Shown: piece by piece, positions 1 to 64,000 of the stretch
How positions within the stretch are numbered: the first letter of the stretch is position 1
Layout: every line of letters begins with the position of its first letter
Assembly: GCA_963978095.1 (NCBI GenBank)
Contig: CAXBQP010000002.1
Coordinates: 81,733-145,732, forward strand
DNA: 64,000 bases
From: an uncultured bacterium
GTDB taxonomy: Bacteria; Gemmatimonadota; Gemmatimonadetes; Gemmatimonadales; Gemmatimonadaceae
Direction: 5' to 3'
The notes under the pieces: model-generated
The model's input: the letters and a program-made list of their open reading frames with translations, nothing else
Databases searched by the model: none
Told to the model about the DNA's origin: nothing
Translations under genes and position numbers: made by a program

Positions 1-4272
<4,272 letters not shown>

Positions 4273-4275
4273 GGG

Positions 4276-8847: not shown

Positions 8848-9001
8848 ATCAACCCTGGCTCGGCCGATGGACGGCGAAAGCCGCCCGCCCCCGGCGCGCG
8901 AGGATTTCGCGCGGCGGAGCGGGACGGACGGAACTTCAGTTGTACGTCGGTGCGAATGCGATCATGGACGGCGAGACCACGTGAGGGGGAGGATGTCGTG
9001 A

Positions 9002-9027
9002 CCGGCTGCCGCGTCGCGGTCAGCCGG
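9002..9027 (-). promoter_or_regulatory. GC-rich hairpin in the rplL-rpoB spacer (possible attenuator or processing site)
   Basis: Inverted repeat CCGGCTG-CCGC...GCGG-T-CAGCCGG; no U-tract. Confidence 0.3.
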
Positions 9028-9045
9028 CCACGAGAACCTGCCGCC

Positions 9046-9435
9046 TTACTTGATCTCGGCCGTCGCGCCCTGCTCTTCGAGCTTGGCCTTGATGGACGCG
9101 GCTTCGTCCTTCGACACGCCCGCCTTCACCACCTGCGGGGCGCCGTCGACCATGTCCTTCGCTTCCTTCAGGCCCAGGCCGGTGAGCTCGCGCACCACCT
9201 TGATGACCTGGATCTTCTTCGCGCCGGCATCCTTGAGCGTGACCGTGAACTCGGTCTGCTCCTCGGTTGCGCCGCCGCCGCCCGCACCCGCGCCACCCGC
9301 CGGGGCCGCAGCCGCGGCGACGACGGTCACGTTGAACTTCGTCTTGAACGCATCGATCAGCTCGGCGAGCTCGATGACCGACATGTTGCCGATCGCGTCG
9401 AGGATCTCGTCCTTGCTCAGAGTCGCATTAGCCAT
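9046..9435 (-). CDS. rplL: 50S ribosomal protein L7/L12
   Basis: [28 protein letters not shown]; Ala/Gly hinge. Confidence 0.99.
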
Positions 9436-9486
9436 TGTCAGATATCTCCGTGAAGAATCCCCCAGGACAGCCTGGGGCGTTGTTGG

Positions 9487-9990
9487 TCAGGCAGACGCCT
9501 GGGGATTGGAACCGGCCTCGAGTTGCGCCACGCGCGCCTCGAGCGTGAGCGCGAACATCGAGAGCACACTGTTGAAGCAGCCGAGCAACTGGCCGAGCGC
9601 TTCGTCCCGGGTCGGGAGCGAGGCGAGCTTCTTCACGAGCGCCGCATCCACCGTGGCGCCCTCGTAGATCCCCCCCTTCACCTCCGGACGCGAATCATTG
9701 GCCTTCGCGAAGTCGGTGAGGATCTTGGCCGCCACCACCGCATCCTTCGCGACGACGACGCCCGTGGGGCCCTTAAGCCGCACGCCGACGCGACCGCTCT
9801 CGTTCACGGCCTTCAGCGCCAGCGTGTTCTTGATGACGACGTAGTCCACGCCCGCCTTGCGGAACTGGCGACGGAGCTCGGTCATCCGCTTCACGTTCAG
9901 CCCCGTGAAGTCGGTGTAGTACAGGGCGTTCGCGCCCGCCATCTTGTCCTTCAGCTCGGCGACGAGCTGTTCCTTGTCGGATCGCTTCAT
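9487..9990 (-). CDS. rplJ: 50S ribosomal protein L10
   Basis: [29 protein letters not shown]; position between rplA and rplL. Confidence 0.98.
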
Positions 9991-29099: not shown

Positions 29100-30850
29100 C
29101 GGCTCCCGCGAATCGTCCGCACGCCGCGGCGCACGTCGCGGCGCACGACGGCGTGCCGACCGGCGCGTTGCCTGACGCGCCACTGCTGCACGTCCTGACG
29201 CCGAAGTGGCTCACGGCCAGGGCGCGCACGGTGTCGACGGCGGATGGCCGCGGGACGCGCGTCGCGCTGTTGGGGGTGGTGGGCCTCCTGTTCTGGAGCG
29301 TGGTCTTCGCCGTGCTGTACCGGTTGCTCGCCTACTTCAAGAGCGTGCAGGAGATCGGTCCGCTGCTGGCCGGCAAGTTGCTGGGCCTCATGCTGGTCAC
29401 CTTTTTTTCGATCCTGCTGCTCTCGAACGTGATCACCGCGCTGTCGAGTTTCTTCCTCGCGAAGGATCTCGACCTGTTGGTATCGGCTCCGGTCGATTGG
29501 CTGCGGGTGTATCTGGCGAAGTTGCTGGAGACGGTGCTCGCCTCGAGTTGGATGGTCGCGTTGATGGCGATCCCGATGTTGGCGGCGTACGGAATCGCGT
29601 ACCGCGGCGGATGGGCGTTCCCGTTGCTCGCGGTCGCGGTCTTCGTTCCGTTCCTCGTGCTGCCGTCAGCCGTGGGAAGCGCGTTGACCCTCCTCCTGGT
29701 CAACGTCTTTCCGGCACGACGCACGCGCGACATCCTGAGCGTCATCGCGGGCGTGACGGCCGCGGGGATCGTCCTGCTCTTCCGGCTCGTGCGGCCAGAG
29801 CGCCTCGCGCGCCCCGAAGGGTTCCGGTCCCTGGTGGAGTTCGTCTCCGTCCTCCGCACGCCGACGTCGCCGCTCCTGCCGAGCGAGTGGGCCCAGCGGA
29901 CGATCATGGGGGCGCTCACCGGGCATCAGGACTGGCTCGCCCTGTACCTGCTCTGGACGACCGCCGCAGTCGCCGTGACATGCGGCGCGCTGTTGCACCG
30001 CACGCTGTACCTCCACGGGTTCAGCAAAGCCCAGGAGAGCGCACAACGGGTGATCCAGGCCGGACGGTGGAGCGCGCTCGGCCAGCAACTGCTCGCCCCG
30101 CTCGGCGTGCTGCGTCGCGAGTTGGTCGTCAAGGAACTGCGCCTCTTCTTCCGCGATACGACGCAGTGGTCGCAGCTGATCCTGCTCGCGGTGCTCGTGG
30201 TGGTGTACGTGTTCAACATCAAGTTCCTGCCGTTGCACGGCGAAGGGGTCACCTTCTTTCTCGTCAACGTGATCCCGTTCCTGAACCTCGTGCTCGCCGG
30301 GTTCGTCTTGGCTTCCATCGCGGCGCGCTTCATCTTTCCCGGCGTGTCGTTGGAGGGACGGACGTTGTGGCTCCTGCGGTCGAGCCCGATGCCGGTGCGC
30401 GACCTGCTCTGGGCCAAGTTCTGGGTCGGCACCGCGCCCTTGCTCGTGCTCGCGATTGGGATCGTGGGGGTCACGGACTACCTCCTGCAGGTGTCCGCGT
30501 TCATGTTCCTCGTGTCGGTGCTGTCGATCACGCTGCTGACGTTCGCGGTCTCGGGCATGGCGATCGCGTTCGGTACGCTGTTCCCGCAGTACGAGACGGA
30601 GAATGCCGCGCAGATTCCCACGTCGTTCGGCGGATTGCTGTTCATGATGGCGTCGATCACGCTGATCGGCATCGTCGTGGTGCTGGAGGCCAAGCCGGTC
30701 TACGGCTACCTGTCGGCGGAGGCGTTCGGCACGCCTGCGGATCCGACGGAGATGATCATGGGATTCACCGCCGCGGCGTTGCTGTGCGTCGCTGCGACGG
30801 TCGTCCCCATACGCGCGGCGCTCCGGCGCCTCGAGGTGGTGGAACGCTGA
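29096..30850 (+). CDS. Putative ABC exporter permease (many TM helices)
   Basis: DLDLLVSAP, KELRLFFRD, SLEGRTLWLLRSSP; GTGA overlap with the ATPase. Confidence 0.85.
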   Translation: MTAPANRPHAAAHVAAHDGVPTGALPDAPLLHVLTPKWLTARARTVSTADGRGTRVALLGVVGLLFWSVVFAVLYRLLAYFKSVQEIGPLLAGKLLGLMLVTFFSILLLSNVITALSSFFLAKDLDLLVSAPVDWLRVYLAKLLETVLASSWMVALMAIPMLAAYGIAYRGGWAFPLLAVAVFVPFLVLPSAVGSALTLLLVNVFPARRTRDILSVIAGVTAAGIVLLFRLVRPERLARPEGFRSLVEFVSVLRTPTSPLLPSEWAQRTIMGALTGHQDWLALYLLWTTAAVAVTCGALLHRTLYLHGFSKAQESAQRVIQAGRWSALGQQLLAPLGVLRRELVVKELRLFFRDTTQWSQLILLAVLVVVYVFNIKFLPLHGEGVTFFLVNVIPFLNLVLAGFVLASIAARFIFPGVSLEGRTLWLLRSSPMPVRDLLWAKFWVGTAPLLVLAIGIVGVTDYLLQVSAFMFLVSVLSITLLTFAVSGMAIAFGTLFPQYETENAAQIPTSFGGLLFMMASITLIGIVVVLEAKPVYGYLSAEAFGTPADPTEMIMGFTAAALLCVAATVVPIRAALRRLEVVER

Positions 30851-31311
30851 TGCAGATCGGAGTGGCGCACGAGACGGACATTCAGGCGGTGGTCGACCTG
30901 AACAATCGATTCGCCCCGCAGGGGCTCACACTGCCGCGCTCGCCGAACTTCGCGTATGCGCACCTGCAGGACTATCGGGTGCTGCGCGACGCGGACGGCG
31001 GGATCGTCGGATGCGTCGCGCTGGACGAGTACTCGCCCTCGGTGGTGGAGCTGATCTCGCTCGCCGTCTCGCCGGACGCGCAGGGCATCGGTCACGGCAA
31101 GGTGCTCATCGCGGCGGCCGAACGGTTGGCGCGCACCCGCGGGTACCGGGAGCTGTTCGCCGTCTCGTATTCGGACGACCTCTTCCTCTCCTGCGGATTC
31201 TCCCGCTCGGCGCTGTCGCGGTTTCCGGAGAAGATCGTGCGCTACCAGTCGCTCGATCAGAGTGAGATCCTGGTCGGCGAGAAACATTGTTTCGCCAAAG
31301 TCCTGCGCTAG
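30850..31311 (+). CDS. GNAT N-acetyltransferase (short ArgA-like)
   Basis: LPRS..., ELISLAVSPDAQGIGHGKVL acetyl-CoA motif, FPEKI; TGATG overlap. Confidence 0.85.
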   Translation: MQIGVAHETDIQAVVDLNNRFAPQGLTLPRSPNFAYAHLQDYRVLRDADGGIVGCVALDEYSPSVVELISLAVSPDAQGIGHGKVLIAAAERLARTRGYRELFAVSYSDDLFLSCGFSRSALSRFPEKIVRYQSLDQSEILVGEKHCFAKVLR

Positions 31312-50582: not shown

Positions 50583-51308
50583 TCAACTCCGCGAGAGCCG
50601 CAACTCGTCGATGTTGACCGTTGCGGGTTGCGTGACCGCAAAGAGCACGGCGCGCGCGACATCGTCCGCGTGGAGCATCTGATCACGATTGGGGAGATCG
50701 CTGCGCGCGTCGGGATCGAGGAGATCCCACAGGGCGGTGTCCGTGGGGCCCGGTGACACCAGCGTGGCCCGTACGCCGCTCCCGCGGGTCTCGAGGCGCA
50801 GGACCTCGTGCATGGCACGGGCGCCGAACTTCGTCGCGGCGTACGCACCGTTCTCCGGGAAGGCGGTGCGGTCTGCCACCGACCCGATCGTCACGATATG
50901 TCCCGCGCCGGCCGCCCGCATCGCCGGCAGCAGCCCTCGCATGAACCGGAACGGGGCCACGAGATTGGCGGCGATCGCTTCGGACAGTTGGGTATCCGTG
51001 AGTTCGTGCATCGGCGCAAAGGGGAAGACCCCGGCGCAGTTCACCAACAGTGTCGGACTCCCGTCCAACCGGCGCGGCAGCTCGGTGAGCACCGCCGCGA
51101 CGGCCGCCGCATCGGTCAGATCACAGGGAACCGAGACACCATGGCGCCCGATGGACCCGGCGATCCGATCCAAGGCTTCCTTGCCTCGCGCCACCAGCGC
51201 CACCCTGGCGCCAGCGCCAGCGAGCGCACGGGCAATCGCCTCGCCGACCCCACGCGAGGCGCCCGTGACGACCGCCCGCGTCCCCACGAGCGGCGCGTGA
51301 TGTGTCAC
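50583..51308 (-). CDS. Short-chain dehydrogenase/reductase (NADP-type)
   Basis: [16 protein letters not shown], catalytic S...YAATK, PG; GTGA overlap with folE. Confidence 0.92.
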
Positions 51309-51961
51309 CGCAGAGGGGACGACGGCCCGTGGGCCAAGCGGAGGAACTCGTCGCGGGTCATCGCATCGTCGCGGAAGTTGCCCCGCAGCGCGGACGTGAG
51401 GGTCTTGGAGTTCTGCTTCTCGACGCCGCGCATCATCATGCAGAGGTGATACGCCTCGATCACGACGCCGACGCCCATCGGCTGCAGCACATCCTCGACG
51501 GCCGTGGCGATCTGTTCCGTCAATCGCTCCTGCACCTGCAGCCGACGCGAGAAGATCTCCACGATGCGCGGCAGCTTGGAGAGCCCCACGATGTGACCGT
51601 TCGGGATGTAGGCGATGTGCGCCTTGCCGAAGAACGGGAGCATGTGGTGCTCGCACATCGAGTAGAGTTCGATGTCCCGCACCATCACCATCGAATGGTG
51701 CTCCTCCTCGAACACCGCATCGCCGACGACCTCGAGCACGTCCATCTCATAGCCGCGGGTGAGCCAGGTCATCGCCTTGGCGACGCGGGCCGGGGTCTTC
51801 ACGAGGCCTTCGCGCTGCGGATTCTCGCCGAGCAGTTCGAGCTCGCGCTGGATCAGCGTCTCGAACTCGAGCAAGCGATCGCCACCGCCCTCACGCCCCG
51901 CCTCGAAGGGATCGTCCACGGCATCGACGCGCCGGGGGGGGCGCTTTGATTCACCGCCCAT
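51305..51961 (-). CDS. folE: GTP cyclohydrolase I
   Basis: [48 protein letters not shown]. Confidence 0.97.
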
Positions 51962-52364
51962 CGTACTCGACATAGTTGTTCTCCGTTTCCCACAGACGAA
52001 GCCGTGACAGACGGCCTGGCCGCAAGGCGGGCTCCAAGCGCCGCCAACATGCCAGAATAATGTTCTCTGAGGTCGGATTGGTTCCCTGCAGGAAGGGGAC
52101 CTCGAGGTTCAGGTTCCGGTGATCGACGTGCGACACGAACTCGGCTTCGACGATCCGCTTGACCTCCCCAAGGTCCACGACGTACCCCGTGCGCGGGTCC
52201 GGCTCGCCAGTCACAGATACTTCCAAAACGTAGTTGTGACCGTGCCAGTTCGGATTGTTGCACTTTCCGAACAGCCGGGTGTTCTCCTCATCGCTCAGCG
52301 CGGGGTTGTGCACCCGATGCGCGGCGTTGAAGGTGAGGCGACGCGTGACGGTGACGGCGGGCAT
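51951..52364 (-). CDS. 6-pyruvoyl-tetrahydropterin synthase family protein (C-X5-HGH type)
   Basis: [52 protein letters not shown]. Confidence 0.93.
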
Positions 52365-53290: not shown

Positions 53291-53461
53291 ATGGACGTGG
53301 GCATCATCGCAGCGATCGGCATGCTCATCCTCTGGGGCGTGGGCACCTTCGCGCTCGAGGCGCCAGGGTACATCCACATCCTGCTGACGGGCGGCGTCTT
53401 TCTGCTCGTTTGGCGCATCGTCAAGCGGCAGGATGACACCGCCGCGACGTCCCGCCGCTAG
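53291..53461 (+). CDS. Small membrane protein (lmo0937/DUF5670-like)
   Basis: 56 aa MDVGIIAAIGMLILWGVG...GYIHILL; AGGAG SD upstream. Confidence 0.7.
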   Translation: MDVGIIAAIGMLILWGVGTFALEAPGYIHILLTGGVFLLVWRIVKRQDDTAATSRR

Positions 53462-54432
53462 ATCTCCCAGTTCGAGATGAGCAGCCCGGCGGCGGGCGCG
53501 CGCTCCTCGTAGTCGCTCAGCGACATCCGGAGGTCGGTCCACCGCACGCGCGCGCCGACCTCGATCAACGTCCGGAAGGTGCGGGCGTGCTCGCTCTGCA
53601 CGCGGATCGCGGCCCGCACGGCGCCGCTCCGCCGCGCATAGTCCGCGAGCAGGGGCAACAAATCCATCAGCGCGGCCTCATCCTGAAGCACGATCTTCAG
53701 CACCCGTAGCTCGTCGCGCGCGCGCCCTTCGACCAGTGACGTGCTGTGGCACAGTGCGAATCCCACGAGGCGCCCATCTTCGTGCACGAGGATCGTGTCG
53801 CCGAGGCCGAGTGCGGCGGTGAGGCGCAGTTCGCGCGTGTAGTCGTAACCCGCCTGCACGCGGCCGGCGAGGGCGGCACAGGCCGCAATCGCACGCTCGC
53901 GCTCGGCGGGCTCGAGGGCCGAGAGCAACATCGGGGCACGGAGCGATGGCGAGGCTTCCAGCGTCATCGTGAGCGTGAGGCGGCCGGGCACGAATCCCAA
54001 TGACGCGTAGAACCCGATGTTGTCCATCGTTCGGGGCATGGTCTCCAGCCCGATGACGCGACACCCCGACGCCTTCAAGTGGTCGATCGCGGCCTGCACG
54101 ATCAGCTTGCCGTATCCGAGCCCTTGGCTCTCCTCACGGACCGCGAGCGGACCCATCCATCCTTCGCCGCCGGAGTGGTGCGCGAGGTTGAAGGCGACGA
54201 TCCCGCCGCGCGAGTCGCGCCAGAGCATGGCACCCGCGTCGGCATTCTCGATCGCGTAGCGCCAGATCGCGGGGTTCAAGGGCGGCACGCGCACGCCCAC
54301 CAAGCCGTCGCGTCGATAGCGATCGGTGAAGGCCTCGCTGAACATCACGTTGAGAGGCCCGATATCCTGCTCGAGGATCGGGAACGGGCCGTGGAGTTGG
54401 CCTTTCACATGCGTGTCCGGCTGCATGGCCAT
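53458..54432 (-). CDS. Tandem GNAT-fold acetyltransferase
   Basis: GPLAVREESQGLGYGK, FYASLGF; second GNAT-like half; TGATG overlap with the SMC gene. Confidence 0.85.
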   Translation of the reverse strand: MAMQPDTHVKGQLHGPFPILEQDIGPLNVMFSEAFTDRYRRDGLVGVRVPPLNPAIWRYAIENADAGAMLWRDSRGGIVAFNLAHHSGGEGWMGPLAVREESQGLGYGKLIVQAAIDHLKASGCRVIGLETMPRTMDNIGFYASLGFVPGRLTLTMTLEASPSLRAPMLLSALEPAERERAIAACAALAGRVQAGYDYTRELRLTAALGLGDTILVHEDGRLVGFALCHSTSLVEGRARDELRVLKIVLQDEAALMDLLPLLADYARRSGAVRAAIRVQSEHARTFRTLIEVGARVRWTDLRMSLSDYEERAPAAGLLISNWEI

Positions 54433-56858
54433 CAGAGCGCCTCGACGCCGACCGGCGCCGAGGCGCCGCGTCGCACCGTCGCCGCCCCGCTGTTCGGATC
54501 GAAGGTCACCTCGATGACCTGATCGAGCCCGTCCCGGACACCCTCGATGTGCGTGATCAGGATGACCTGCTCGAAGCGGTCCTGGAGTCCGCGCAAGAGC
54601 TCGACGACATTCTGGCGTCGCGTGTCGTCCAGCGATCCGAAGATCTCGTCGAGCACCAGCAGCGAGAACGACTGCCCGGCCCGCTCGGCGATCATCTGCG
54701 AGATCGCGAGCCGCAGCACGAGATTCGCGAGATCCTCCTCTCCCCCCGAGATCACCGGTTTCGGGATGCCGTCCTCGAGGACGACGATCCGGTATTTGTC
54801 ATCGAGTTCGACTTCGGTGTAGCGCGCGTCGGTGAGTTCGGTCAGGAACGCGCTTGCCAACTCCGACAACTCGGGACGCAACTGGAGATTCAGCTCGGTG
54901 CGCAGATCGGCGTACGCGCGATGCAGTTCGTCGTGCATGCGCTTGTCGGCCTCGCGTTCGGCGAGCTGCGCCTCGATCTGCAGCAGCTCCGCTCGCGTCG
55001 CCGTCGCGCGAGCCAGCGCCTCTGAGGCCATGGTGGCCGCGCCCTGCGCGCCCACGGTGTCGAGCGCGGCCGTGCGGCAGGCATTGTCGGCGACGCGATA
55101 TGCGTCCTTGAGCGCGGTGAACTCCTCCTCGGTACCCGGAACGTCGCGGCGTCGACGGACGATGTCCTCGCGGCGCGCGTCGAGGTCCGCGATCTGCCGC
55201 GCGATGCCGTCCTGCTCACGCTTACAGGAGGATTCCCGATCCACCTGAAGGGACAGCCGATTCGCCTGCGTGGACAGCTCGGCCAGAGCCTCGAACCGCT
55301 GCTCGAGCACCTGATGGGCCACGGCATCGTACCCGCCGGGAATCGCCTCCAGTTGCTGCAACAGGGCTTGGTGGCGCAGTTCCTTGGTCGCGATCTCACG
55401 CCCCAGGCGCTCCAGCTGCGCCACCGCCGCTTGCACGCGTACCAGCTTCTTTTCCAGCGCGGCATGTTCCACCTGCAGCACTTTGCGGCGCTCGTCGAGC
55501 GCCGCGAGCTCGGGCGGCATGTCCTCCAGCTGCTCGAGGCGGCTCTTGAAATAGCCACCATCCGTAGCGACCGTTTCCACCTGACCATCGAGCAGGTCCA
55601 GGACTTGGCGATAGTGGTCACCCAGTGGCCGCTGGCAGGTGGGACAGGTACCCTGCTCCCCGAGGTCGACGAGCCGCTCGCGCTGGTCACGCAGCTCGGC
55701 ATACTGCGCACGCAGCGCGTTGCGCTTGGTTTCCGCCTCTTGCCGGTCCCGTACCCATTCAGTGCGCCGCAGCTCGAGGAAGCCTTGGGCGTCCTCGAGT
55801 TCCCTGGCCTTGGCTTCGAGCGCCAGGACGGTTTCCTCCTCGAGGATCGGCGCCGTGGAATAGCGTTCGCGCTCCTGCCGCGCCGCCGACAGCTCGGCCT
55901 GCAGTTCGGACTCCTGTGTACTGAGCACCGCACGCTGCAGGTGCTGTGCTTCGAGGGCTTTGACCGCGGCGAGCTGCTCGCGGACGACGGCGAATGGCTG
56001 GAGTTCCACGAGCAGTGGTGCCAAGGCCGCGCGCGCGGTGGCAACGGCCACCAACTCGCGCGCCATCCGATCGGCATTCTCCCGCAGCGACTGCAGTTGG
56101 GAATCCGCCACCCGAAGATCCGCGTCCAACTGCTGCTGCGTCTCGCGCTGGCGTTGCGCCTCGATCCAGCGTGGCGCGATCGCATCATACGCGCTCTGCG
56201 CCGTCGCGCGCTGCAACTCGGCCACCGCGAGCCGCTCGTGCGCGCGCGCCAACGCTGCCTCGGCCTCCGACACCTGTTTAGCCACGATCGCCGGATCGGG
56301 CATGCCCAGCCGGATGCCCGCGATGATGCTGCGGAGATCGCGACGCCGATTCTCCACCAACTCTTGCGCGGCCCGAAGTTTCTCGTAGCCCAGCACGCGG
56401 GAGAGGAACTGCCCACGTTCTGCGGCCGTGAGCGACGCCATCACCGTCAGCTCCTTCTGTCCGGTGAAATAGGTATTGAAGAACTCGCTCCGGCTCATCC
56501 CGAGTCGCCGCTGCAGCACGTCGCCCACCGCGGTCGCCGAGTTCGCGATGGCCTGGTCGCCACCATCGAGGTAGAGCTCGGCCATTGTGAGTCCGCGAAC
56601 CACGCGATACCGATGTCCCCCGAGCTCGAACTCCAGTTCCACGCGCACCTGGGCGCGCGCCGCTGCCCGCACGAAGCGGATGGAGTCCTTGCCGCCGCGG
56701 GCGGTATCACCGCCGTACAGCGCCCACGCCACCGCCTCGAGAATGGTGGACTTCCCCGCGCCATTCGGACCGATGATCCCCGTGAGCCCACGCTCGAAAT
56801 CGATCGTGGTGTCCGCGTGCTGGCGGAAGTTGACGAGCCGGATGCGAGAGAGCTTCAT
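54432..56858 (-). CDS. sbcC: Rad50/SbcC SMC-family ATPase
   Basis: GPNGAGKST, Q-loop, coiled coils with a central CPTC zinc hook, SGGE signature, LVLDEIFGSLD, ITH. Confidence 0.93.
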   Translation of the reverse strand: MKLSRIRLVNFRQHADTTIDFERGLTGIIGPNGAGKSTILEAVAWALYGGDTARGGKDSIRFVRAAARAQVRVELEFELGGHRYRVVRGLTMAELYLDGGDQAIANSATAVGDVLQRRLGMSRSEFFNTYFTGQKELTVMASLTAAERGQFLSRVLGYEKLRAAQELVENRRRDLRSIIAGIRLGMPDPAIVAKQVSEAEAALARAHERLAVAELQRATAQSAYDAIAPRWIEAQRQRETQQQLDADLRVADSQLQSLRENADRMARELVAVATARAALAPLLVELQPFAVVREQLAAVKALEAQHLQRAVLSTQESELQAELSAARQERERYSTAPILEEETVLALEAKARELEDAQGFLELRRTEWVRDRQEAETKRNALRAQYAELRDQRERLVDLGEQGTCPTCQRPLGDHYRQVLDLLDGQVETVATDGGYFKSRLEQLEDMPPELAALDERRKVLQVEHAALEKKLVRVQAAVAQLERLGREIATKELRHQALLQQLEAIPGGYDAVAHQVLEQRFEALAELSTQANRLSLQVDRESSCKREQDGIARQIADLDARREDIVRRRRDVPGTEEEFTALKDAYRVADNACRTAALDTVGAQGAATMASEALARATATRAELLQIEAQLAEREADKRMHDELHRAYADLRTELNLQLRPELSELASAFLTELTDARYTEVELDDKYRIVVLEDGIPKPVISGGEEDLANLVLRLAISQMIAERAGQSFSLLVLDEIFGSLDDTRRQNVVELLRGLQDRFEQVILITHIEGVRDGLDQVIEVTFDPNSGAATVRRGASAPVGVEAL

Positions 56859-58045
56859 CCCTCCTCCACCGTGGAGGGGGCGTCGCGAACGACGCCGGCC
56901 TGCTCCGCCTCGTGCAGGTAGTGCATGCCGAGCCGCACCATGTCGTCGCGATCGATGTCGGAGGTCAGCTTCCGCGATCGCAGATGATCCGCGAGGAGCT
57001 CGTCAAGGGAGGGGCGGCGCCCCGGGGCCCCCGCCCCAACCTCACGGCGCAACACCTCGGGGCGCCGTGTATCGAGATGGAAATGCAACGCGCTCCGCTG
57101 ATACTCGCGCAGCGCCTTGTGGTCGAGTTCACGGGCCACATGGCGCGGCACATCACGTGCCACCAGACGGATCACCTTCTCGTGGATCCCGCCGTTCACC
57201 GCGCCGACGGCCGCCGCGATCGCCGCGTCGAGATCGGCGGACGACATCCCCCGCCCCTCGATCGGAGGGAGATCATGGAACTCGCGAAAGCGCTTGATCT
57301 TGTGCTGCCTTTGTCTGGCCGTCTCGAGGTCCCACTCGAGCAGCCACTTCCCGGGGAGCCGCTGCGCCTGCTCTTCCGCCAGCTCCCCCCACGGATTGGA
57401 ACTCGTGTACTCGATCGCGCCGGAGTAGAACGCCTTGGGCCCGACCTTCTTGTACACGTGATAGTCGCCGAGTGCGATGTAGTCCCACCGCGGGTCCTCG
57501 AGGACCGTGCGCGGGATCGTCAGCCCCACGCGTTCGGTGTGCCGCGGAATCGAATCCTCGACCTCGCCATGGACGAGCAGGACGTTGTAACGCGCGTTCG
57601 GATCCTGATCGAAATGGATGTCGTGCGGCGGAAGATCGGGAACGGCGAGCACCGACAGGGCGCCGTCGCGCAGCGTCAAGCGTTGCGGTTCGGTGTCCAC
57701 GACATGGATGCCGAGGGGACGGAAGAGCCGCAGGATGCAGGTCGTCTCGCTCGAGCGCGGCATGTCGTGGTTGCCGGCCACCATCACCACGTCCGTGCCG
57801 GGTAGCGCCTGCACCAGTCGCTGGAACTGCAGGAAGGCATGGATGATCGCCGGATTCGTCGGGCGGACGGTATGGAACACGTCCCCCGCGACCACGATCA
57901 GCTCGGGTTTCAAGGCGATGGCCTGCTCGACGAGGTGCCGGAACACGTCCGCAACGTCCGCCTCGCGCTGGTTGATGCCAGTCTGAGTCGTGCGCTGGAA
58001 CTGCCGGAAGCCGAGATGCAGGTCGGAGAGATGCAGGAGCCGCAC
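56855..58045 (-). CDS. sbcD: Mre11/SbcD metallophosphoesterase nuclease
   Basis: SDLHLG, AGDVFH, GNHD, VHGE, ALGDYH, YSG; ATGA overlap with sbcC. Confidence 0.92.
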   Translation of the reverse strand: MRLLHLSDLHLGFRQFQRTTQTGINQREADVADVFRHLVEQAIALKPELIVVAGDVFHTVRPTNPAIIHAFLQFQRLVQALPGTDVVMVAGNHDMPRSSETTCILRLFRPLGIHVVDTEPQRLTLRDGALSVLAVPDLPPHDIHFDQDPNARYNVLLVHGEVEDSIPRHTERVGLTIPRTVLEDPRWDYIALGDYHVYKKVGPKAFYSGAIEYTSSNPWGELAEEQAQRLPGKWLLEWDLETARQRQHKIKRFREFHDLPPIEGRGMSSADLDAAIAAAVGAVNGGIHEKVIRLVARDVPRHVARELDHKALREYQRSALHFHLDTRRPEVLRREVGAGAPGRRPSLDELLADHLRSRKLTSDIDRDDMVRLGMHYLHEAEQAGVVRDAPSTVEEG

Positions 58046-58089
58046 AGCCGTAATCTACGTGCGTTGCCGTCCGCACGTCACCGCATGCG

Positions 58090-60042
58090 TCAGAAGCTGT
58101 AGGGGTCGTCCGGCGGACTGCTCTTGAGCGGCGCGACGCGTGGCCGAGATTCGGCGGACTTCGGCGCCACGCGCCGCTTCAGCTGGGACCGAAAGTAGCC
58201 CTTCACGTCCTCCGGCTTCGCCATCAGCGTCCGGTTGCGCGCACGGATCACCTCGTCCTCCTCGGCGAGCGCGATGCTCTCCTTGACCCAGTCGAGCGTC
58301 ACCGAGGGATCGAGCAGGCGCAACGCCCGCGTCACCGCACTCTCCAGCGTTTGCTCGGGCGCTTGCGGGAATCGCTCCACTCCTTCGCGTCCCGAGAGCA
58401 CGGCCGGACGCGGGAAGCGCACGAACACCGGCTGGGTGAAGTGCGGATGGCGCACCATCAGCTGTCCCTTCTCGAGGGTGCTCAGCTTGGTACGGGTGGC
58501 GGGCGTGAGCGTGGCGTAGCCCGGCGTGGCGAGCTCATCGGGGTCCATGCGGCCGAAGAGCGCCGTGCCGGAGTTGCCGACCACGCGGCGGTGCACCTGC
58601 GAGCGGAACTGCTGCGCGGCGAAGAGCACGAGTCCGAGATAGCGTCCCCGCTCGGCGATATCGAGCAGCATCGCGCGCACATAGGTGTCCGGACCGTCGC
58701 TCGGCGCGTACTTGTTGAGTTCGTCGACGAACACCACCACGTGCTCCACGCCGAGCGTGCGCGACTCCAGTCGCTCACGCAACTGCGAGACGATGCGCGC
58801 GAAGATGAGGTCCTGTGCGTCCTCTTCGAGGTTCGCGACGTCAACGACGTACACCGCCCGATCCTCGAAGGCCCCGAACGGGAGATCACTCACCGAGCCG
58901 TCGTCGGTCACGAGTCCGCGGCAGCGCGTCGAGATGTTGGTGAGTCGATTGCGCACCTTGCGGATCGTGGCCACGTGGTGGGTGCGCCACGACTCCTGGT
59001 TCTTCGACTCCATCATCTGAAGGAGGTCGCGGAACCACGCTTCGAGCTCGCCGAACGACTGCACGGTGTGCGGCTCGCTCAGCATGGTGTCGCTGAACGG
59101 CTGGTCGACCACGCGCTCCTTGATGAAATCGATGAGCGCATCGGCCTTCGCGTCGATGTCATCCTTGTTGAGCAGGACCTCCGCGAACTGCAACACTTCG
59201 CGCAGCCCCCACGTGAGCGGGTGCACGTTGTGCGCGAGCGCTTCGTTCGACCGCAGCGTGTTGAGTGCGTAGCCGCGCGCCGTATACGGCGCGTAGTACT
59301 TCACGTTCCGGAACGGCTCGGCCGGGACGCCGAGCGTGTCGTAGAGCGCGCGATCGGAGTCGTCGAGCCGGGAGGCGGGCTGATCGAGGAAGCAGAGGTC
59401 CGGCCCCTTCACGTTGAAGCAGACGGCGGCAACCTTCCCCTTCTTCTCGGGGAAATGCGCGAAGATCGAGGCGAGCAGCCATTCGACCGCGCTGGTCTTG
59501 GTTGCCAATCCCGAGACGCCGCTGATGTTCAGGTGGGCAGCTTCGGGGCCGAGCAGGAAATCGGCGTCGAGGTGCACCGGCGACGACGTCGCTCCGGCGC
59601 GGTACAGTCCGACCGGGATGGCGGTGCGGTTCTCCCCGGAGGCATAGCCGTCCATGCGAAGTGCGGCGGCCACGTCGTGGTCGTCGGCGAGATGCACCGT
59701 GCCTGAGCCCACGGGCTGGAGCGGCTCCTCGGGCACGTGACGCAACACGGCGGCGGTGTAGAGCCGGATCTCCGTGCGGCGCGTCGGGGCCTGGTGCGCG
59801 GTGCCCGGCTGTCCGTCGTGCCCGAGCACATCGTGAAGCGGCGTCTCGAGGTCGGTGTAACCGAACCCTTCCGTGACCACGCCGAACGCGACCGGGAGCG
59901 CACCGTTCACCGGGGTCGCACCCTCCACGCGCACGATCGTCCCGATCCCGACCGGCGAGTCGAGCGCGGTCCAGAAGTGGAACTCGTGCGGCGTGTTGGG
60001 ACGTCGCTCGGTGGCGACGACGCGGCCCAGAACGGTAGTCAT
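58090..60042 (-). CDS. herA: HerA-family ATPase/DNA translocase
   Basis: N-terminal HAS-barrel-like region; AHLNISGVSGLATKTS (HerA Walker A variant), FNVKG, VFVDELNKYAP, ERGRYLG..LFAAQQ. Confidence 0.88.
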   Translation of the reverse strand: MTTVLGRVVATERRPNTPHEFHFWTALDSPVGIGTIVRVEGATPVNGALPVAFGVVTEGFGYTDLETPLHDVLGHDGQPGTAHQAPTRRTEIRLYTAAVLRHVPEEPLQPVGSGTVHLADDHDVAAALRMDGYASGENRTAIPVGLYRAGATSSPVHLDADFLLGPEAAHLNISGVSGLATKTSAVEWLLASIFAHFPEKKGKVAAVCFNVKGPDLCFLDQPASRLDDSDRALYDTLGVPAEPFRNVKYYAPYTARGYALNTLRSNEALAHNVHPLTWGLREVLQFAEVLLNKDDIDAKADALIDFIKERVVDQPFSDTMLSEPHTVQSFGELEAWFRDLLQMMESKNQESWRTHHVATIRKVRNRLTNISTRCRGLVTDDGSVSDLPFGAFEDRAVYVVDVANLEEDAQDLIFARIVSQLRERLESRTLGVEHVVVFVDELNKYAPSDGPDTYVRAMLLDIAERGRYLGLVLFAAQQFRSQVHRRVVGNSGTALFGRMDPDELATPGYATLTPATRTKLSTLEKGQLMVRHPHFTQPVFVRFPRPAVLSGREGVERFPQAPEQTLESAVTRALRLLDPSVTLDWVKESIALAEEDEVIRARNRTLMAKPEDVKGYFRSQLKRRVAPKSAESRPRVAPLKSSPPDDPYSF

Positions 60043-60055
60043 CCCTGAAAATACG

Positions 60056-61069
60056 CTACGGCGCGATGGCGCGCAGATAGCGCTCGCAGTCGGCAATCCC
60101 GTACGCCATCGCATGCCAGCGGTGGTCGGGGAGGGCCAGTGGGGTACGCTCGGCCAGCACCCAGCGCGACACCAAGTCCGCACGCTCGGCACGGAACCCC
60201 TCGCGCGCGATCTCGATGCGGACCAGCCCGAACATCGGGTCGGTGGCCTCGCGCAGGCGCAGGTACCAACTGGCCACGGCGGTCCGGCGCGGCGAACGGA
60301 TCTCGAACGCCGTCGTCCGCTCGCCGACGCGCAGGCGCGTCACCACGCCGATTCCCTCGCCCGCCGCATACAGCGTCCGATGCGACTTCACCACACCGAC
60401 CGCGCGCGGACTCCGCGCCGCATCCCCCGCGCCGGAGATCCCTCCGTCAACATAGATCGCCCCACCGCCCGTGGCGCACCACCGTTCCGCAAGCGCGGTC
60501 TCGAGGCGCTCCCGTTCGCGTTGCACCGCCGTGCGTGCGAGGGCCAGCAACAACTGCGGATGCTGGGCCTCGGCGGCATCGCCACCATCGAGCGTGTCGT
60601 GCACCGGGATCCCGGCGGCATCGAACGTCGCGAGTTGTCCGGTCGGGGTGACGGCGCGCGGGAGATAGACGCGCGTCGAGAGTTCGGGCGCGCCGTTCCA
60701 GGTGTGCAGGGTGCGATCGCGCCGCTCGCGGACCACCGCCGCCACGGTGCCGAAGATCACGGGCACCCCGCCCGGGAGATACTGCAGCACACGCGTCGAC
60801 TGGATGCCATCGAGGAACGCGGCGATTCCCACGAGCGGGGTCGGATCGAGCGCCCGCACGGCGAGCGTCTCCCCTTCGATCGGCACGGCGGCCTCAGTGC
60901 GCGGCGGCTCCATCTCGAGCGCCAATCGCTCCAGCGACGGCGCTCCCGCTGTCTCGAGCCGCCATCCCCCTGCCGGCGCCCCGGGCGCCGCGCGAAGCGC
61001 GCGCAACACATCGGACACCCCGACGGTCGCCGCGCGACTGGCGCGTCCGTCGTCGGGCGCGGCGATCAT
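60056..61069 (-). CDS. nurA: NurA-family nuclease (RNase H-like fold)
   Basis: AFLDGIQ, RERLE, YVDGG, GVVKSH, SWYLRL, late E.YL; directly upstream of herA. Confidence 0.75.
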   Translation of the reverse strand: MIAAPDDGRASRAATVGVSDVLRALRAAPGAPAGGWRLETAGAPSLERLALEMEPPRTEAAVPIEGETLAVRALDPTPLVGIAAFLDGIQSTRVLQYLPGGVPVIFGTVAAVVRERRDRTLHTWNGAPELSTRVYLPRAVTPTGQLATFDAAGIPVHDTLDGGDAAEAQHPQLLLALARTAVQRERERLETALAERWCATGGGAIYVDGGISGAGDAARSPRAVGVVKSHRTLYAAGEGIGVVTRLRVGERTTAFEIRSPRRTAVASWYLRLREATDPMFGLVRIEIAREGFRAERADLVSRWVLAERTPLALPDHRWHAMAYGIADCERYLRAIAP

Positions 61070-61347
61070 CACTCGATCCCGATGTCCCACGCCTGCTCGA
61101 GATCCGCCTTGGAATAGGCGCGGAACGCCGTCAGCGTCGTGGTGCGCTGGATCCCCGGGACCTCCGGGAACTGCTCGGTGACGATACGCGCGATATCCTC
61201 ATACGCCGGCACCTTGACGATCACCACGAGGTCCCACTCACCGGACACTGAATACACTTCCGCCACACCGTCGATTCCCGCGAGCGCATGGGCACACGTC
61301 GGAATCAGGCGCGGCTCGGCCTTCACCAGCACGATGGTCGTTATCAT
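61069..61347 (-). CDS. Stand-alone Lrp/AsnC ligand-binding (RAM) domain protein
   Basis: 92 aa; GVAEVYSVSGEWDLV, GIQRTTT; no HTH; TGATG overlap with nurA. Confidence 0.88.
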   Translation of the reverse strand: MITTIVLVKAEPRLIPTCAHALAGIDGVAEVYSVSGEWDLVVIVKVPAYEDIARIVTEQFPEVPGIQRTTTLTAFRAYSKADLEQAWDIGIE

Positions 61348-61442
61348 GTCGCGTCAGGGACTGGAGGGAGCTGCAGGAACCACGGACCTGCGGGGAACAC
61401 ATCGAGCGTCTTCCCTGAACCGCGTGCAGTCTGTCAACGGCA

Positions 61443-62657
61443 TCAACGGTCCCCGGCGAGGACCGCGCGGTACGTCTTCACCAGCAGATGCATCGCGCGC
61501 TCCACCTCCGACTGATCCGCCGCGTAGGAGACGCGTACCCATTCCGGGGTGCGGAACGCCGACCCCGGGACGATGGCCAGCCCCGCGTCGTCCAGGAGCC
61601 GCGCACAGAATGCGTCGCCGTCGCGGCTGCCGCCCGGTGCCGCCGGCGCGCGCAGGAACAGATAGAACGCCCCTTGCGGATCCAGCACCTCGATCCGCGG
61701 CTCCTGGCCGAGGATTGCCAGCGCGGCATCCCGACGTTGGCGGAATGCGGCGACCATCGCATGCACTGCGACATCGGCCTCGTCGACCCGCGCGAGCGCC
61801 GCCAGCGCCGCATGCTGCGACACCGTGGCGGCGTTCGACGTCGTGTGGGATTGGAACGCCGTCATCGCCTTGGCGACCGGCGCCGACGACACGCTCCACC
61901 CGATCCGCCATCCGGTCATGGCATAGGCCTTCGCCACGCCGTTGATCACGACGAGTCGATCGCGAGCCGACGCCACATCCAGCGCCGACGCCGCTGGCCG
62001 CTCGTAGGCGATACGCTGATAGATCTCGTCGCTGATCACGAACCACCCGCGGCGCTGCGCCAAGTCCAGAATGGCGCGAAGCTCGTCGGGCGCGTACACC
62101 GAGCCCGTCGGATTCGAGGGGGAGTTCAGCATGATCCCCGTGGTCCGCGTCGTGGCCTGCGCCTCCAGCATCGACGGCGACACCTTGAACCCGTTCGACG
62201 GATCCCCGAGCACGGCGACCGGCGTGGCCCGTGCCAACTCGACCATCTCGTAGTAGCTCGTCCAGGCCGGTGTGGGCACCAGCACCTCGTCACCGGGACC
62301 GAACAGGCAGACGCAGGCGTTGTAGAGCGACTGCTTGGAGCCCGTGGACACCACAACGTCCGTGGCCGCCACCCGATCGGCGCCGACATAGCGCGCATTC
62401 GCCTGGTCGGCGATGACCTGCCGCAGCGGCAGGATTCCGTCGACGGCGGTGTACCGCGTGGCCCCCTGCTCCACGGCCAGCGCGGCCGCACTCCGAATGA
62501 AGGCTGGCGTATCGAAATCCGGCTCACCGGCCCCGAGATCGATGATGGTGCGGCCCGCGGCCTTGAGCGCCTTCGCCTTTTGCGAGACCGCAATGGTGGC
62601 CGACTCGCGCAATAGCGCGATGTTCGCGGACGGGACGAAGCGGAGGTCGGACGACAT
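61443..62657 (-). CDS. PLP-dependent class I/II (aspartate) aminotransferase
   Basis: ATG 62657; GAGEPDFDTP, NSPSNPTG, SDEIY, KAYAMTGWRIG. Confidence 0.95.
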   Translation of the reverse strand: MSSDLRFVPSANIALLRESATIAVSQKAKALKAAGRTIIDLGAGEPDFDTPAFIRSAAALAVEQGATRYTAVDGILPLRQVIADQANARYVGADRVAATDVVVSTGSKQSLYNACVCLFGPGDEVLVPTPAWTSYYEMVELARATPVAVLGDPSNGFKVSPSMLEAQATTRTTGIMLNSPSNPTGSVYAPDELRAILDLAQRRGWFVISDEIYQRIAYERPAASALDVASARDRLVVINGVAKAYAMTGWRIGWSVSSAPVAKAMTAFQSHTTSNAATVSQHAALAALARVDEADVAVHAMVAAFRQRRDAALAILGQEPRIEVLDPQGAFYLFLRAPAAPGGSRDGDAFCARLLDDAGLAIVPGSAFRTPEWVRVSYAADQSEVERAMHLLVKTYRAVLAGDR

Positions 62658-62774
62658 TCGAAAGGTCAGCGTGGGGGACAGTACGCAAGTGGCGATCCCA
62701 CTCGCTAGATTTACCGGCTGAAGGTGAAGGATATCCCTGCGGCGCATGCCGCGCCATTGACATCTGAGGTAGCA

Positions 62775-64000
62775 GTGACTGAGCAAGAACGCGAGACGGC
62801 CGGAGCCGTCCGTAGCACCAATGTGGCCCATTTTCTCGCCCCCGACTGGACTCAGGCGGCTCAGCGCGCCGCGGGCGCCCTGGAACGCATCGACCGTGAG
62901 CGCCCCATGGTGCAGCTCCTGGTCGTGGTCCCCGATGACGAAGCCGCCGACAGCGTCTCCCGTGAGCTCCGCCTGCTCTCCGCCGCCCACGGCGTCGCCG
63001 TGGTACCGGTCACCAGTTCGGCGCGGGCGGGTCGCATGCTCAAGGCGGGCCCGGCACATGTCCTCGTGGGCCGCGCCCGCGCCCTGGCCGACCTGCTCCC
63101 GGATTCGACGCTCAAGCTCGGCGATGTCGCCGCTGTGATCCTTGTGGCCGCCGACGAACTCGAGTCCGACGCCGACGCGCTGTCGACCCTCATGGCGGAG
63201 CTCCCCAAGAAGGGCGCGCGCATGCTGCTCGCGGCCGACGCGACGCCGTTCGTGGAAAGCCTGCTCGAGCGCTATCTGCACCGGGCCCGTCGCATGGCCG
63301 ATGCCACGCCGGAACCGCTCCCCCTCCCGGAAGGAACGCCGCCGACCATCTCGGTGATCACCACCCAGGCGGGCAAGCCGCTGGCCCCGATGGCCGCGGT
63401 GCTGGACGACATCGACCCCCCGTCGCTCGCGATCGTCGTCGGCGACGCACGCGAGGAAGGGCGTGCCCGCGCGGCGCTCGAGGCGCTCGGATATCCGGCC
63501 GACTCGTCGCTCGTGACCGTCACCCGTGGCGCGGTGACCCTCCACACGGCCCTGGTGATCTTCGCGGGACTCCCCGACGCCGCACAGTTGCGCGCGGCCT
63601 TCGGTGCGCATCCGGCACGCATGGTCGCGCTCGTCACGACCCGCCAGCGGAGGACGCTGGCGGCCCGTGCGGTGGGCGCGAAGATCGTGCCGTACGACCG
63701 CATGCGCTCGGCACGCGCGGCCCGTGCCCGAGAGGACGCCACGCGCGCGGCCTTGCAGCAGGTCCTGGACCGCGGCCTCTCCGTGCGCGAAGTGCTGGCG
63801 TTGGAGCCGATGCTGGCCGAGCACGACGGCCTCGCGATCGCCGCGGCCGCGCTCCGGTTGTATGAAGAAGCACGCGAAGCGACCGCCGCCGCGCACGCGG
63901 CAGGGCGCGAGGAGTTGCGACTCGAGATCAAGGCCCGCGCCGACGCCGCGGCCGAGCGGGCCGAGCGCCCGAAGGACGGTGGCGCGCCCCGCAAGCCGTT
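62775..64000 (+). CDS. Degenerate DEAD-box helicase-like protein (3' end outside the window)
   Basis: GAGG SD plus GTG 62775; manually translated frame is open to the window end: QLLVVVP, HVLVGRARALADLL, LKLGDVAAVILVAADEL, ELPKKGARMLLAA; not in the ORF track. Confidence 0.7.
   Translation, partial: MTEQERETAGAVRSTNVAHFLAPDWTQAAQRAAGALERIDRERPMVQLLVVVPDDEAADSVSRELRLLSAAHGVAVVPVTSSARAGRMLKAGPAHVLVGRARALADLLPDSTLKLGDVAAVILVAADELESDADALSTLMAELPKKGARMLLAADATPFVESLLERYLHRARRMADATPEPLPLPEGTPPTISVITTQAGKPLAPMAAVLDDIDPPSLAIVVGDAREEGRARAALEALGYPADSSLVTVTRGAVTLHTALVIFAGLPDAAQLRAAFGAHPARMVALVTTRQRRTLAARAVGAKIVPYDRMRSARAARAREDATRAALQQVLDRGLSVREVLALEPMLAEHDGLAIAAAALRLYEEAREATAAAHAAGREELRLEIKARADAAAERAERPKDGGAPRKP

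Follow-up and report, generated by a model that had tools for sequence, protein, structure and literature searches.

Nearly all work on how HerA-NurA and Mre11-Rad50 cooperate comes from hyperthermophilic archaea. In the Sulfolobales and Thermococcales the four genes form a herA-mre11-rad50-nurA operon. Archaeal Mre11 binds HerA (PMC2288612; papers are cited by their PMC numbers, in every case from an excerpt of the text). The same four families, in one co-oriented cluster and with the same pairings, occur on the minus strand at positions 53458-61347 of a 64,000-nucleotide stretch of DNA from an uncultured bacterium of the Gemmatimonadaceae (contig CAXBQP010000002.1), which is referred to in its whole length as the window. 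As in the archaeal systems, the window Rad50 is short (808 aa), carries a zinc hook and scores best on archaeal Rad50 models. The locus differs from the archaeal operon in its bacterial host and in HerA and NurA proteins of a bacterial (Deinococcus/TM1739) type, the NurA being nearer to the Protein Data Bank (PDB) entries 7f6d and 1zup than to the archaeal 2ygk. It differs further in the order nurA-herA-mre11-rad50, in a fixed fifth gene encoding a GNAT protein, and in genes inserted between the two halves of the cluster in 15 of 37 related loci.

Among bacteria, the NurA-HerA proteins of Deinococcus radiodurans and Thermus thermophilus (7f6d) are the closest solved relatives of the window pair. 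They have the same Walker A motif, nurA lies directly upstream of herA as it does here, and the D. radiodurans proteins resect DNA ends biochemically (PMC9960219). The window NurA is about 16% identical to chain G of 7f6d in the structural alignment. According to the excerpts of PMC4663267 and PMC5448004, however, the pair is not next to sbcCD in Deinococcus and Thermus, whereas the two are always linked in the window and its relatives; for Deinococcus, the connection of HerA-NurA to SbcCD "remained to be uncovered" (PMC4663267). An arrangement like that of the bacterial cluster described here was noted in 2017 in Oceanithermus profundus, where sbcD and sbcC lie downstream of nurA-hepA, and was read by its authors as an archaeal-like architecture for double-strand-break repair (PMC5448004). 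It is mentioned in passing, for one genus, and is likened to the window locus by its description. A preliminary description of the window had suggested that the six-gene unit may be undescribed. The core is not undescribed in bacteria, and it is also present in the six plasmid-collection records considered below. A 2026 review, in the excerpt cited, presents bacterial nurA as lacking stable clustering with herA, mre11 and rad50 (PMC13748450). Our literature search found no paper on a nurA-herA-mre11-rad50 operon in the Gemmatimonadota, although earlier mentions of bacterial clusters may exist, and a search on RecBCD/AddAB turned up nothing on Gemmatimonas.

Escherichia coli SbcCD shares with the window the phosphoesterase motifs of Mre11/SbcD, the ABC-ATPase architecture of Rad50/SbcC and an overlapping gene pair. 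The window proteins are nevertheless less similar to SbcD and SbcC than to the archaeal proteins, and SbcC is a much longer protein than the 808-aa window Rad50. HerA-based anti-phage systems and TdpAB likewise join a HerA-family ATPase to a nuclease effector, and chain G of 8wfd resembles the window NurA. Unlike the HerA anti-phage systems, the window locus has no Sir2 or DUF4297 partner and no system-level match in PADLOC, and it stands in a core-chromosome setting.

The core is therefore a known kind of system in a new phylum, and no new kind of system is revealed. Its four proteins are identified, their catalytic motifs are intact and their gene order is conserved. It seems moderately likely that the cluster is a chromosomal, vertically inherited housekeeping operon of the Gemmatimonadota for the end resection of double-strand breaks. 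The six co-oriented genes listed in the preliminary description, with its coordinates, overlaps and gaps, are all correct:

61069..61347, minus strand (read 61347..61069): RAM-domain gene, 92-aa open reading frame (ORF)
60056..61069, minus strand: nurA-like gene, 337-aa ORF
58090..60042, minus strand: herA-like gene, 650-aa ORF
56855..58045, minus strand: mre11/sbcD, 396-aa ORF with a GTG start
54432..56858, minus strand: rad50/sbcC, 808-aa ORF
55635..55646, minus strand: codons of the Rad50 zinc hook (CPTC), residues 405-408, translation GTCPTCQR, in the middle of the coiled coil
53458..54432, minus strand: tandem GNAT gene, 324-aa ORF, final gene of the operon

The junctions were read in the sequence. 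The RAM stop codon and the nurA ATG overlap by 1 nt (TGATG), as do rad50 and the GNAT gene (TGATG), and mre11 and rad50 overlap by 4 nt (ATGA). Gaps of 13 bp and 44 bp separate nurA from herA and herA from mre11, respectively.

The four core proteins

The NurA candidate has no Pfam match even at E <= 10, PF09376 included, so its membership of the NurA family is argued from a profile and from the fold. As a single sequence it reached only an E of 0.068 in the PDB, to 7f6d_H. Homologues were gathered in two sets, 1783 at E <= 0.001 in one and 566 representatives in the other. The family profile consisted of 60 sequences, the window protein and 59 of 150 listed representatives, which were picked by eye as near full length with fragments excluded. 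Searched against the PDB, this profile matched 1zup (TM1739) at 6.5e-10 and the NurA chain 7f6d_H at 1.4e-8, and the Pfam NurA family PF09376 was matched by 14 of the 60 members at E <= 0.1 (best 4.8e-7). The AlphaFold (AF2) model of the protein has a pLDDT of 92 and a pTM of 0.90. Its top Foldseek matches are 7f6d_G (8e-12), 1zup (2e-9) and the Sulfolobus NurA 2ygk (1.2e-6), the fifth is chain G of 8wfd, described as a TdpAB complex (3.4e-6), and endonuclease V and Argonaute PIWI folds appear lower in the list. The TM-scores of the model to the solved structures are modest, only 0.46-0.55.

The DG motifs I and II of NurA, as defined in PMC13748450, are both intact in the window protein. In the FLDG motif, D87 is kept in 58 and G88 in all 60 family members, and in the VDG motif both D208 and G209 are kept throughout (60/60), as is E190 (60/60). 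The histidine-containing motif III is not evident in the family alignment, and a conserved glutamate, E329 (58/60), stands in its place. The NurA fold, which the preliminary description had made the test of its reading of 60056-61069, is present there according to the profile, the pLDDT-92 model and the Foldseek matches to 7f6d, 1zup and 2ygk, and the segment is predicted to encode a bacterial-type NurA-like nuclease with an RNase H-like fold.

The HerA candidate also has no Pfam match even at E <= 10. In a phmmer search of the PDB, residues 6-284 and 327-556 matched 7f6d_B, the HerA of D. radiodurans, at an E of 4.6e-45. Its Walker A, NISGVSGLATKTS, aligns with NISGISGVATKTS of 7f6d_B, the unusual ...SG(V/L)ATKTS form being common to both, and its Walker B, VVFVDELNKYAP, is of the DE type and was aligned to the same chain. 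Matches to the HerA_Thermprot model of NCBIfam (7e-4, 18 bits against a cutoff of 800) and to the HerA model of PADLOC (1.7e-5) are weak. Judged by its sequence, 58090..60042 encodes a HerA-family translocase ATPase of the Deinococcus type, which is predicted to be hexameric.

In Mre11, the motifs DLHLG, GDVFH, GNHD, LVHG and GDYH can be read, and the metal ligands D8, H10, D55, H93, H159 and H196 are kept in all 37 orthologues and N92 in 36 of them. The protein matches Pfam PF00149 (E 1.1e-11, 46 bits against a cutoff of 21.5). In NCBIfam, TIGR00619 (sbcd) gave 1.7e-20, at 73.9 bits against a cutoff of 77.65, and Mre11_Sulfo gave 1e-18; the scores on the Mre11 equivalog models are far under their cutoffs. 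The best PDB matches are the Mre11 chains 3auz and 4tug at 2.5e-12, and SbcD chains follow at 1.7e-7. At residue 194 (57464-57466), in motif V, a putative metal-ligand histidine is swapped for aspartate in the window and in three relatives, loci L001, L003 and L026 (GDYH); the other 33 of the 37 have histidine (GHxH).

Rad50 contains, in order, GPNGAGKST, a Q-loop, the CPTC zinc hook, SGGE, the Walker B LDEIFGSLD and an H-loop, and the CPxC hook, the SGGE signature and Walker B are present in 37/37 orthologues. It has a short coiled coil and matches AAA_23, SMC_N and SbcC_Walker_B in Pfam. Its best NCBIfam model is the archaeal Rad50 PRK03918 (5.1e-53, 180 bits against a cutoff of 700), with TIGR00618 (sbcc) at 6.3e-28 (97 bits against a cutoff of 478). 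The best PDB matches are the Rad50 chains 3aux (1.5e-30) and 3qku (1.5e-28), and no chain named SbcC was found among the 26 matches at E <= 1e-5. At the sequence level, then, both Mre11 and Rad50 score higher on archaeal than on canonical bacterial models. The core identities given in the preliminary description are thereby borne out for all four proteins, with NurA and HerA established through PDB matches, profile and fold. The zinc hook, ABC motifs and nuclease motifs that it reported are present in the Rad50 and Mre11 translations.

Linkage within and beyond the Gemmatimonadota

The relatives compared are 51 loci encoding a NurA-like relative, obtained from a scan of one genome per species. 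The record titles of 50 name Gemmatimonadota lineages and one says "bacterium". Synteny was scored by tblastn of the window proteins at E <= 1e-5, and only loci long enough for a given junction were counted. Downstream of nurA, herA follows in 49/49 scorable loci. It is followed by mre11 in 37/37, within 400 bp in 22 of them and with 774-1750 bp inserted in the other 15, and rad50 then follows mre11 in 39/39. The last junction, from rad50 to the GNAT gene, is likewise kept in each of the 37 loci that could be scored. The order nurA-herA-mre11-rad50-GNAT holds over NurA identities of 35-82% and, because it recurs in every scorable related locus, the arrangement is not due to chance. The four-gene linkage claimed earlier therefore withstands the synteny check across the phylum that had been proposed for it.

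Outside the phylum, a tblastn search with HerA against 72,556 records of a plasmid collection matched six. All six carry, besides the HerA-like gene, a NurA-like ORF, sbcD and an sbcC/SMC-type gene, with sbcD and sbcC directly beside the HerA-like gene. The NurA-likeness of these ORFs was established by hhalign against the window NurA family (E values of 6e-11, 6.5e-22, 3.4e-18 and 9.1e-11) and for the others by tblastn. The order is nurA-herA-sbcD-sbcC in Sphaerospermopsis (AP018315), Aulosira (AP018313), Nostoc (CP091916) and Chlorohelix (CP128402). It is herA-sbcD-sbcC-nurA in Streptomyces (CP134205) and Nonomuraea (LT559118), which is the Sulfolobales order quoted in PMC13748450. The hosts belong to the Cyanobacteriota, Chloroflexota and Actinomycetota, and the window HerA is 25-34% identical to the other bacterial copies seen. 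That the linkage is kept through two gene orders argues for selection on the linkage itself. At 11.85 Mb, the Nonomuraea record is possibly a chromosome that was deposited under plasmids.

Stable clustering in a whole phylum and in plasmid records of three others is the opposite of what the review excerpt states for bacterial nurA (PMC13748450). It supports a functional link of HerA-NurA with Mre11-Rad50 in bacteria, and it makes the Gemmatimonadota a possible bacterial setting in which this link could be probed.

End resection, defence or two separate modules

If the cluster serves end resection, Mre11-Rad50, a nuclease with a zinc-hook ABC-ATPase, would recognise and clip DNA ends. A HerA hexamer would drive duplex DNA into a NurA dimer (HerA6-NurA2), and HerA-NurA might then perform long-range degradation of the 5' strand, or of both strands, to yield 3' tails for RecA. 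The labour would be divided as has been proposed for thermophilic archaea with their herA-mre11-rad50-nurA operon, here with HerA and NurA of the bacterial type. We infer that the halves cooperate physically, and likewise the direction of resection and any part played by the GNAT. The chief argument for joint work of the halves is a linkage seen in four phyla and in two gene orders.

A housekeeping role in end resection is favoured because of the core-chromosome setting, the syntenic flanks and the lack of a defence system recognised by PADLOC. The other genes of the window include rpoB/C, nusG, uvrA, a recF-like gene, gyrB and ligA, so that the window is core chromosome, and synteny on either side of the operon extends across the Gemmatimonadota. 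Run on the operon proteins, PADLOC returned no complete defence system and only generic ATPase matches (mad3, mad8, LmuB, PbeC, PtuA), and weak HerA ones, with none for the NurA, RAM and GNAT proteins. The operon contains no sensor gene, and no neighbouring gene resembles one for DNA modification.

Several observations weigh against this reading. The NCBIfam scores of Mre11, Rad50 and HerA are all under the curated cutoffs. In the Thermus of PMC5448004, nurA-hepA is co-transcribed with metabolic genes, so operon neighbours of nurA and herA can be functionally unrelated to them. In the 15 Gemmatimonadota loci noted above, 0.8-1.75 kb of unrelated genes lie between herA and mre11; the two halves therefore need not be transcribed together, and the inserts are what speaks most strongly against one obligatory transcript. 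Furthermore, some of the plasmid copies adjoin Wadjet-like, TIR and ImmA/IrrE genes, and the review excerpt assigns bacterial NurA-HerA a role chiefly in defence against foreign DNA (PMC13748450).

The last two points lead to the first alternative, in which the cluster is a defence module that destroys incoming linear or foreign DNA from phages or plasmids, as RecBCD does with unprotected ends, and does not act in repair. The core occurs in all six HerA-matched records of the plasmid collection, one of which is the 11.85-Mb LT559118. The Streptomyces CP134205 cluster adjoins a TIGR02680/TIGR02678/DUF2397 trio, which is of the Wadjet type, and an ImmA/IrrE peptidase gene. The cluster in Chlorohelix CP128402 adjoins TIR-domain, Ser/Thr-kinase and ImmA/IrrE metallopeptidase genes. 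These surroundings, seen in the plasmid loci L053 (1-5947) and L054 (1-5829), suggest that the plasmid-borne clusters lie in defence-island or damage-response contexts. The resemblance of the NurA model to the TdpAB chain in 8wfd and the view of bacterial NurA-HerA as mainly immune nucleases (PMC13748450, in excerpt) point in the same direction, as does a nurA-herA pair in a Thermotogae virus. In the Gemmatimonadota, however, the operon lies amid core chromosomal genes, its flanks conserved, and not in a variable island, the PADLOC matches are those weak generic ones, modification and sensor genes are missing from the operon, and divergence tracks across all five genes as vertical descent predicts. 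A defence role suits the surroundings of the plasmid copies better than those of the Gemmatimonadota operon, and for the window it is considered unlikely.

The viral pair was seen in Marinitoga camini virus 1 (L059, 4927-7635), where an annotated NurA-like exonuclease and HerA lie near a LexA-like repressor gene without Mre11 or Rad50. The phage collection held two records with a HerA-like match.

A second alternative, to which a similarly low probability is given, is that nurA-herA and mre11-rad50-GNAT are independent modules that are neighbours by descent and do not cooperate. In its favour, the herA/mre11 junction is interrupted by unrelated genes in 15 of 37 loci, in two of them (L006, L026) by a gene on the opposite strand, and the two pairs are unlinked in Deinococcus and Thermus as these are described in the excerpts of PMC4663267 and PMC5448004. 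Against this, the linkage persists in 37/37 Gemmatimonadota loci despite the inserts and is found again, in another order, in three further phyla, a recurrence that would hardly be expected if linkage were not under selection. Of ten gap ORFs tested, two matched DUF6263 (L034, L046), one CarboxypepD_reg and seven nothing in Pfam; the CarboxypepD_reg protein is that of L006 and is shared with L026, on the opposite strand. The inserts consist of one or two genes, as in L043 (12701-14481), L032 (12957-13937), L034 (12703-13575), L046 (10606-11460) and L006 (9634-10689), and the junction looks like a recurrent insertion point.

The GNAT and RAM genes and the flanks of the operon

Returning to the end-resection operon, its fifth gene encodes a tandem GNAT protein, a description given earlier and here confirmed by the fold. 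Pfam recognises a single domain, PF00583, at residues 76-147 (E 7e-14). The AF2 model (pLDDT 92.3), in contrast, finds tandem GNATs as its top Foldseek matches, namely 3tt2, 7q3a (MAB_4324), 6wqb, 5kf1, 1ozp and 2wpw, and VipF, a glucosamine N-acetyltransferase and MshD are among the proteins matched. The alignments to 3tt2, 7q3a, 1ozp and 2wpw run over the full length (307-353 columns, E 3e-11 to 1e-9). GNATs bind acetyl-CoA through a Q/RxxGxG/A motif. It is represented by QGLGYG at residues 103-108 in the N-terminal domain, where Q103, G106 and G108 are invariant in 37 sequences, and none was seen in the C-terminal domain, which is GNAT-like but degenerate. By sequence profile, the nearest solved structures to the N-terminal domain are RimI and Naa30, which are protein N-terminal acetyltransferases (E 4e-7 to 1e-5), a similarity too weak for a substrate class to be assigned from it.

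With its position after rad50 kept in 37/37 scorable relatives, the tandem GNAT is a fixed fifth gene specific to the operon of this phylum, and as an invariably linked protein it is a candidate regulator of the machine. By tblastn at E <= 1e-3, neither GNAT nor RAM homologues were found in five plasmid-collection records tested, and the flanks of the Nostoc CP091916 cluster have no annotated GNAT or Lrp gene. A search of the plasmid collection with the GNAT itself gave four weak partial matches and no orthologue. A complex prediction for Mre11 with the GNAT, made from 37-row alignments with no controls run, scored 0.06 against a mark of 0.32 and is uninformative either way. It could be proposed that the GNAT is a dedicated accessory factor that gates end resection, by acetylating a core protein or by binding DNA ends, and that the core is a widespread bacterial alternative to RecBCD/AddAB. 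This is a speculative proposal with little probability behind it; were it true, a bacterial Mre11-Rad50 complex would have its first known accessory subunit in the GNAT, and resection would be tied to metabolic state.

In a search for longer proteins with the GNAT in a metagenome protein set, seven matched at E <= 1e-10, three of them with Rad50 C-terminal Pfam domains (P0275, P0278, P0280). These apparent Rad50-GNAT fusions were rejected, as their long Arg/Ala-rich out-of-frame stretches and broken GNAT motifs look like frameshifted gene calls; all three resemble calls made across indel errors in high-GC DNA. A second GNAT domain in the window, at residues 590-665 near the end of a 701-aa frame (29206-31311, plus strand) beside ABC-type ATPase genes, is unrelated to that of the operon as far as checked.

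The RAM protein matches Pfam PF01037 (E 7.5e-15, 55 bits against a cutoff of 25). At 92 aa it has no N-terminal helix-turn-helix, and its alignments to the NCBIfam models of Lrp, LysM and AsnC are confined to their C-terminal parts; it is a stand-alone RAM protein and not a transcription factor. Among the relatives, tblastn places a RAM gene 5' of nurA in 32 of 42 scorable loci and finds none in the remaining 10. The protein itself is strongly conserved, with identities of 71-97%. It is directly adjacent to nurA in only two of the 42 (L001, L018) and lies 0.9-1.7 kb away in 30. In the relatives this gap is occupied by an opposite-strand ORF of about 310 aa, divergent from nurA (for example at 9043-9984, minus strand, in L007, and in 39 other loci); a same-strand reading was found in 29 loci against 40 for the opposite-strand one, which scores far higher. 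This ORF has no Pfam match, and the window, in which RAM and nurA abut, lacks it. Since it lies between the two genes, their co-transcription is impossible in most relatives. The tight coupling of RAM and nurA in the window is thus a secondary, lineage-specific juxtaposition; RAM gained its place as first cistron in this lineage alone, once the opposite-strand gene had been lost, and is probably unrelated to the machine.

The preliminary description had taken the lrp-like RAM gene as a member of a six-gene unit, to be given up if that neighbour proved not to be conserved. With RAM touching nurA in 2/42 relatives, absent in 10/42 and usually parted from it by the opposite-strand gene, the conserved unit comprises five genes. 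A machine of six genes, whose resection is tuned through amino-acid sensing by RAM and acetylation of components by the GNAT, is highly improbable: it could draw on the translational coupling of RAM to nurA in the window, on RAM directly upstream in L001 and L018 and on a conserved, rad50-coupled GNAT whose catalytic domain is nearest RimI/Naa30, but RAM stands off behind the opposite-strand ORF in 30/42 relatives and is missing in 10/42, RAM and GNAT are undetected in the five plasmid loci and unannotated in the Nostoc flanks, the fusion proteins look like frameshift artefacts and the substrate class is unreadable from so weak a similarity. No evidence was obtained for the tuning by acetylation or amino-acid sensing that had been suggested.

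The two ends of the operon are marked as follows:

61348..61442, minus strand: 95-bp spacer from the aminotransferase gene to the RAM gene, from the ORF ends and the sequence; possible promoter region
53291..53461, plus strand: small hydrophobic ORF (56 aa), convergent and overlapping with the GNAT stop; 3' boundary of the operon

At the 5' end, including the 95-bp spacer, a scan for the sigma-70 consensus and for terminators found none, and sites were no commoner than in shuffled sequences; promoter activity of the spacer is possible. Upstream, the ORF at 61443-63896 (minus strand) is open for 817 aa, and its class I/II aminotransferase domain covers residues 450-803 only. The first 449 aa have no Pfam match; probably the aminotransferase gene truly starts well inside this frame, or a second gene occupies its first part. 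In relatives, an ORF of 167-171 aa ends exactly at the RAM start codon (8057-8572 in L007, 7964-8467 in L003); it has no Pfam match and is missing from the window.

Elsewhere in the window, a 2688-aa open frame at 1387-9453 (plus strand) has no Pfam match and lies antisense to rpoB and rpoC. Many further long antisense ORFs occur, a usual artefact of about 67% G+C that calls for caution in any ORF-based reading.

At the 3' end, the stop codons of the GNAT gene and of the 56-aa ORF overlap in the palindrome CTAG, and this small protein has two predicted membrane-like stretches. By tblastn it is found in 27 of the 51 loci, on the opposite strand and within about 250 bp after the GNAT gene in all but L029. 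Downstream, at 50583-52364 (minus strand), lie genes for 6-pyruvoyl-tetrahydropterin synthase (PTPS), GTP cyclohydrolase I (folE) and a short-chain dehydrogenase (SDR), a pterin or queuosine-precursor cluster. Because the convergent ORF overlaps the GNAT stop, the GNAT gene is the last of the operon and is not co-transcribed with PTPS, folE and SDR. A grouping of the GNAT with these pterin genes was rejected, given the intervening ORF and the 9 of 26 scorable loci that keep the GNAT with neither PTPS nor folE; in the other 17, one or the other follows it. A promoter-like site is present at 53260-53232.

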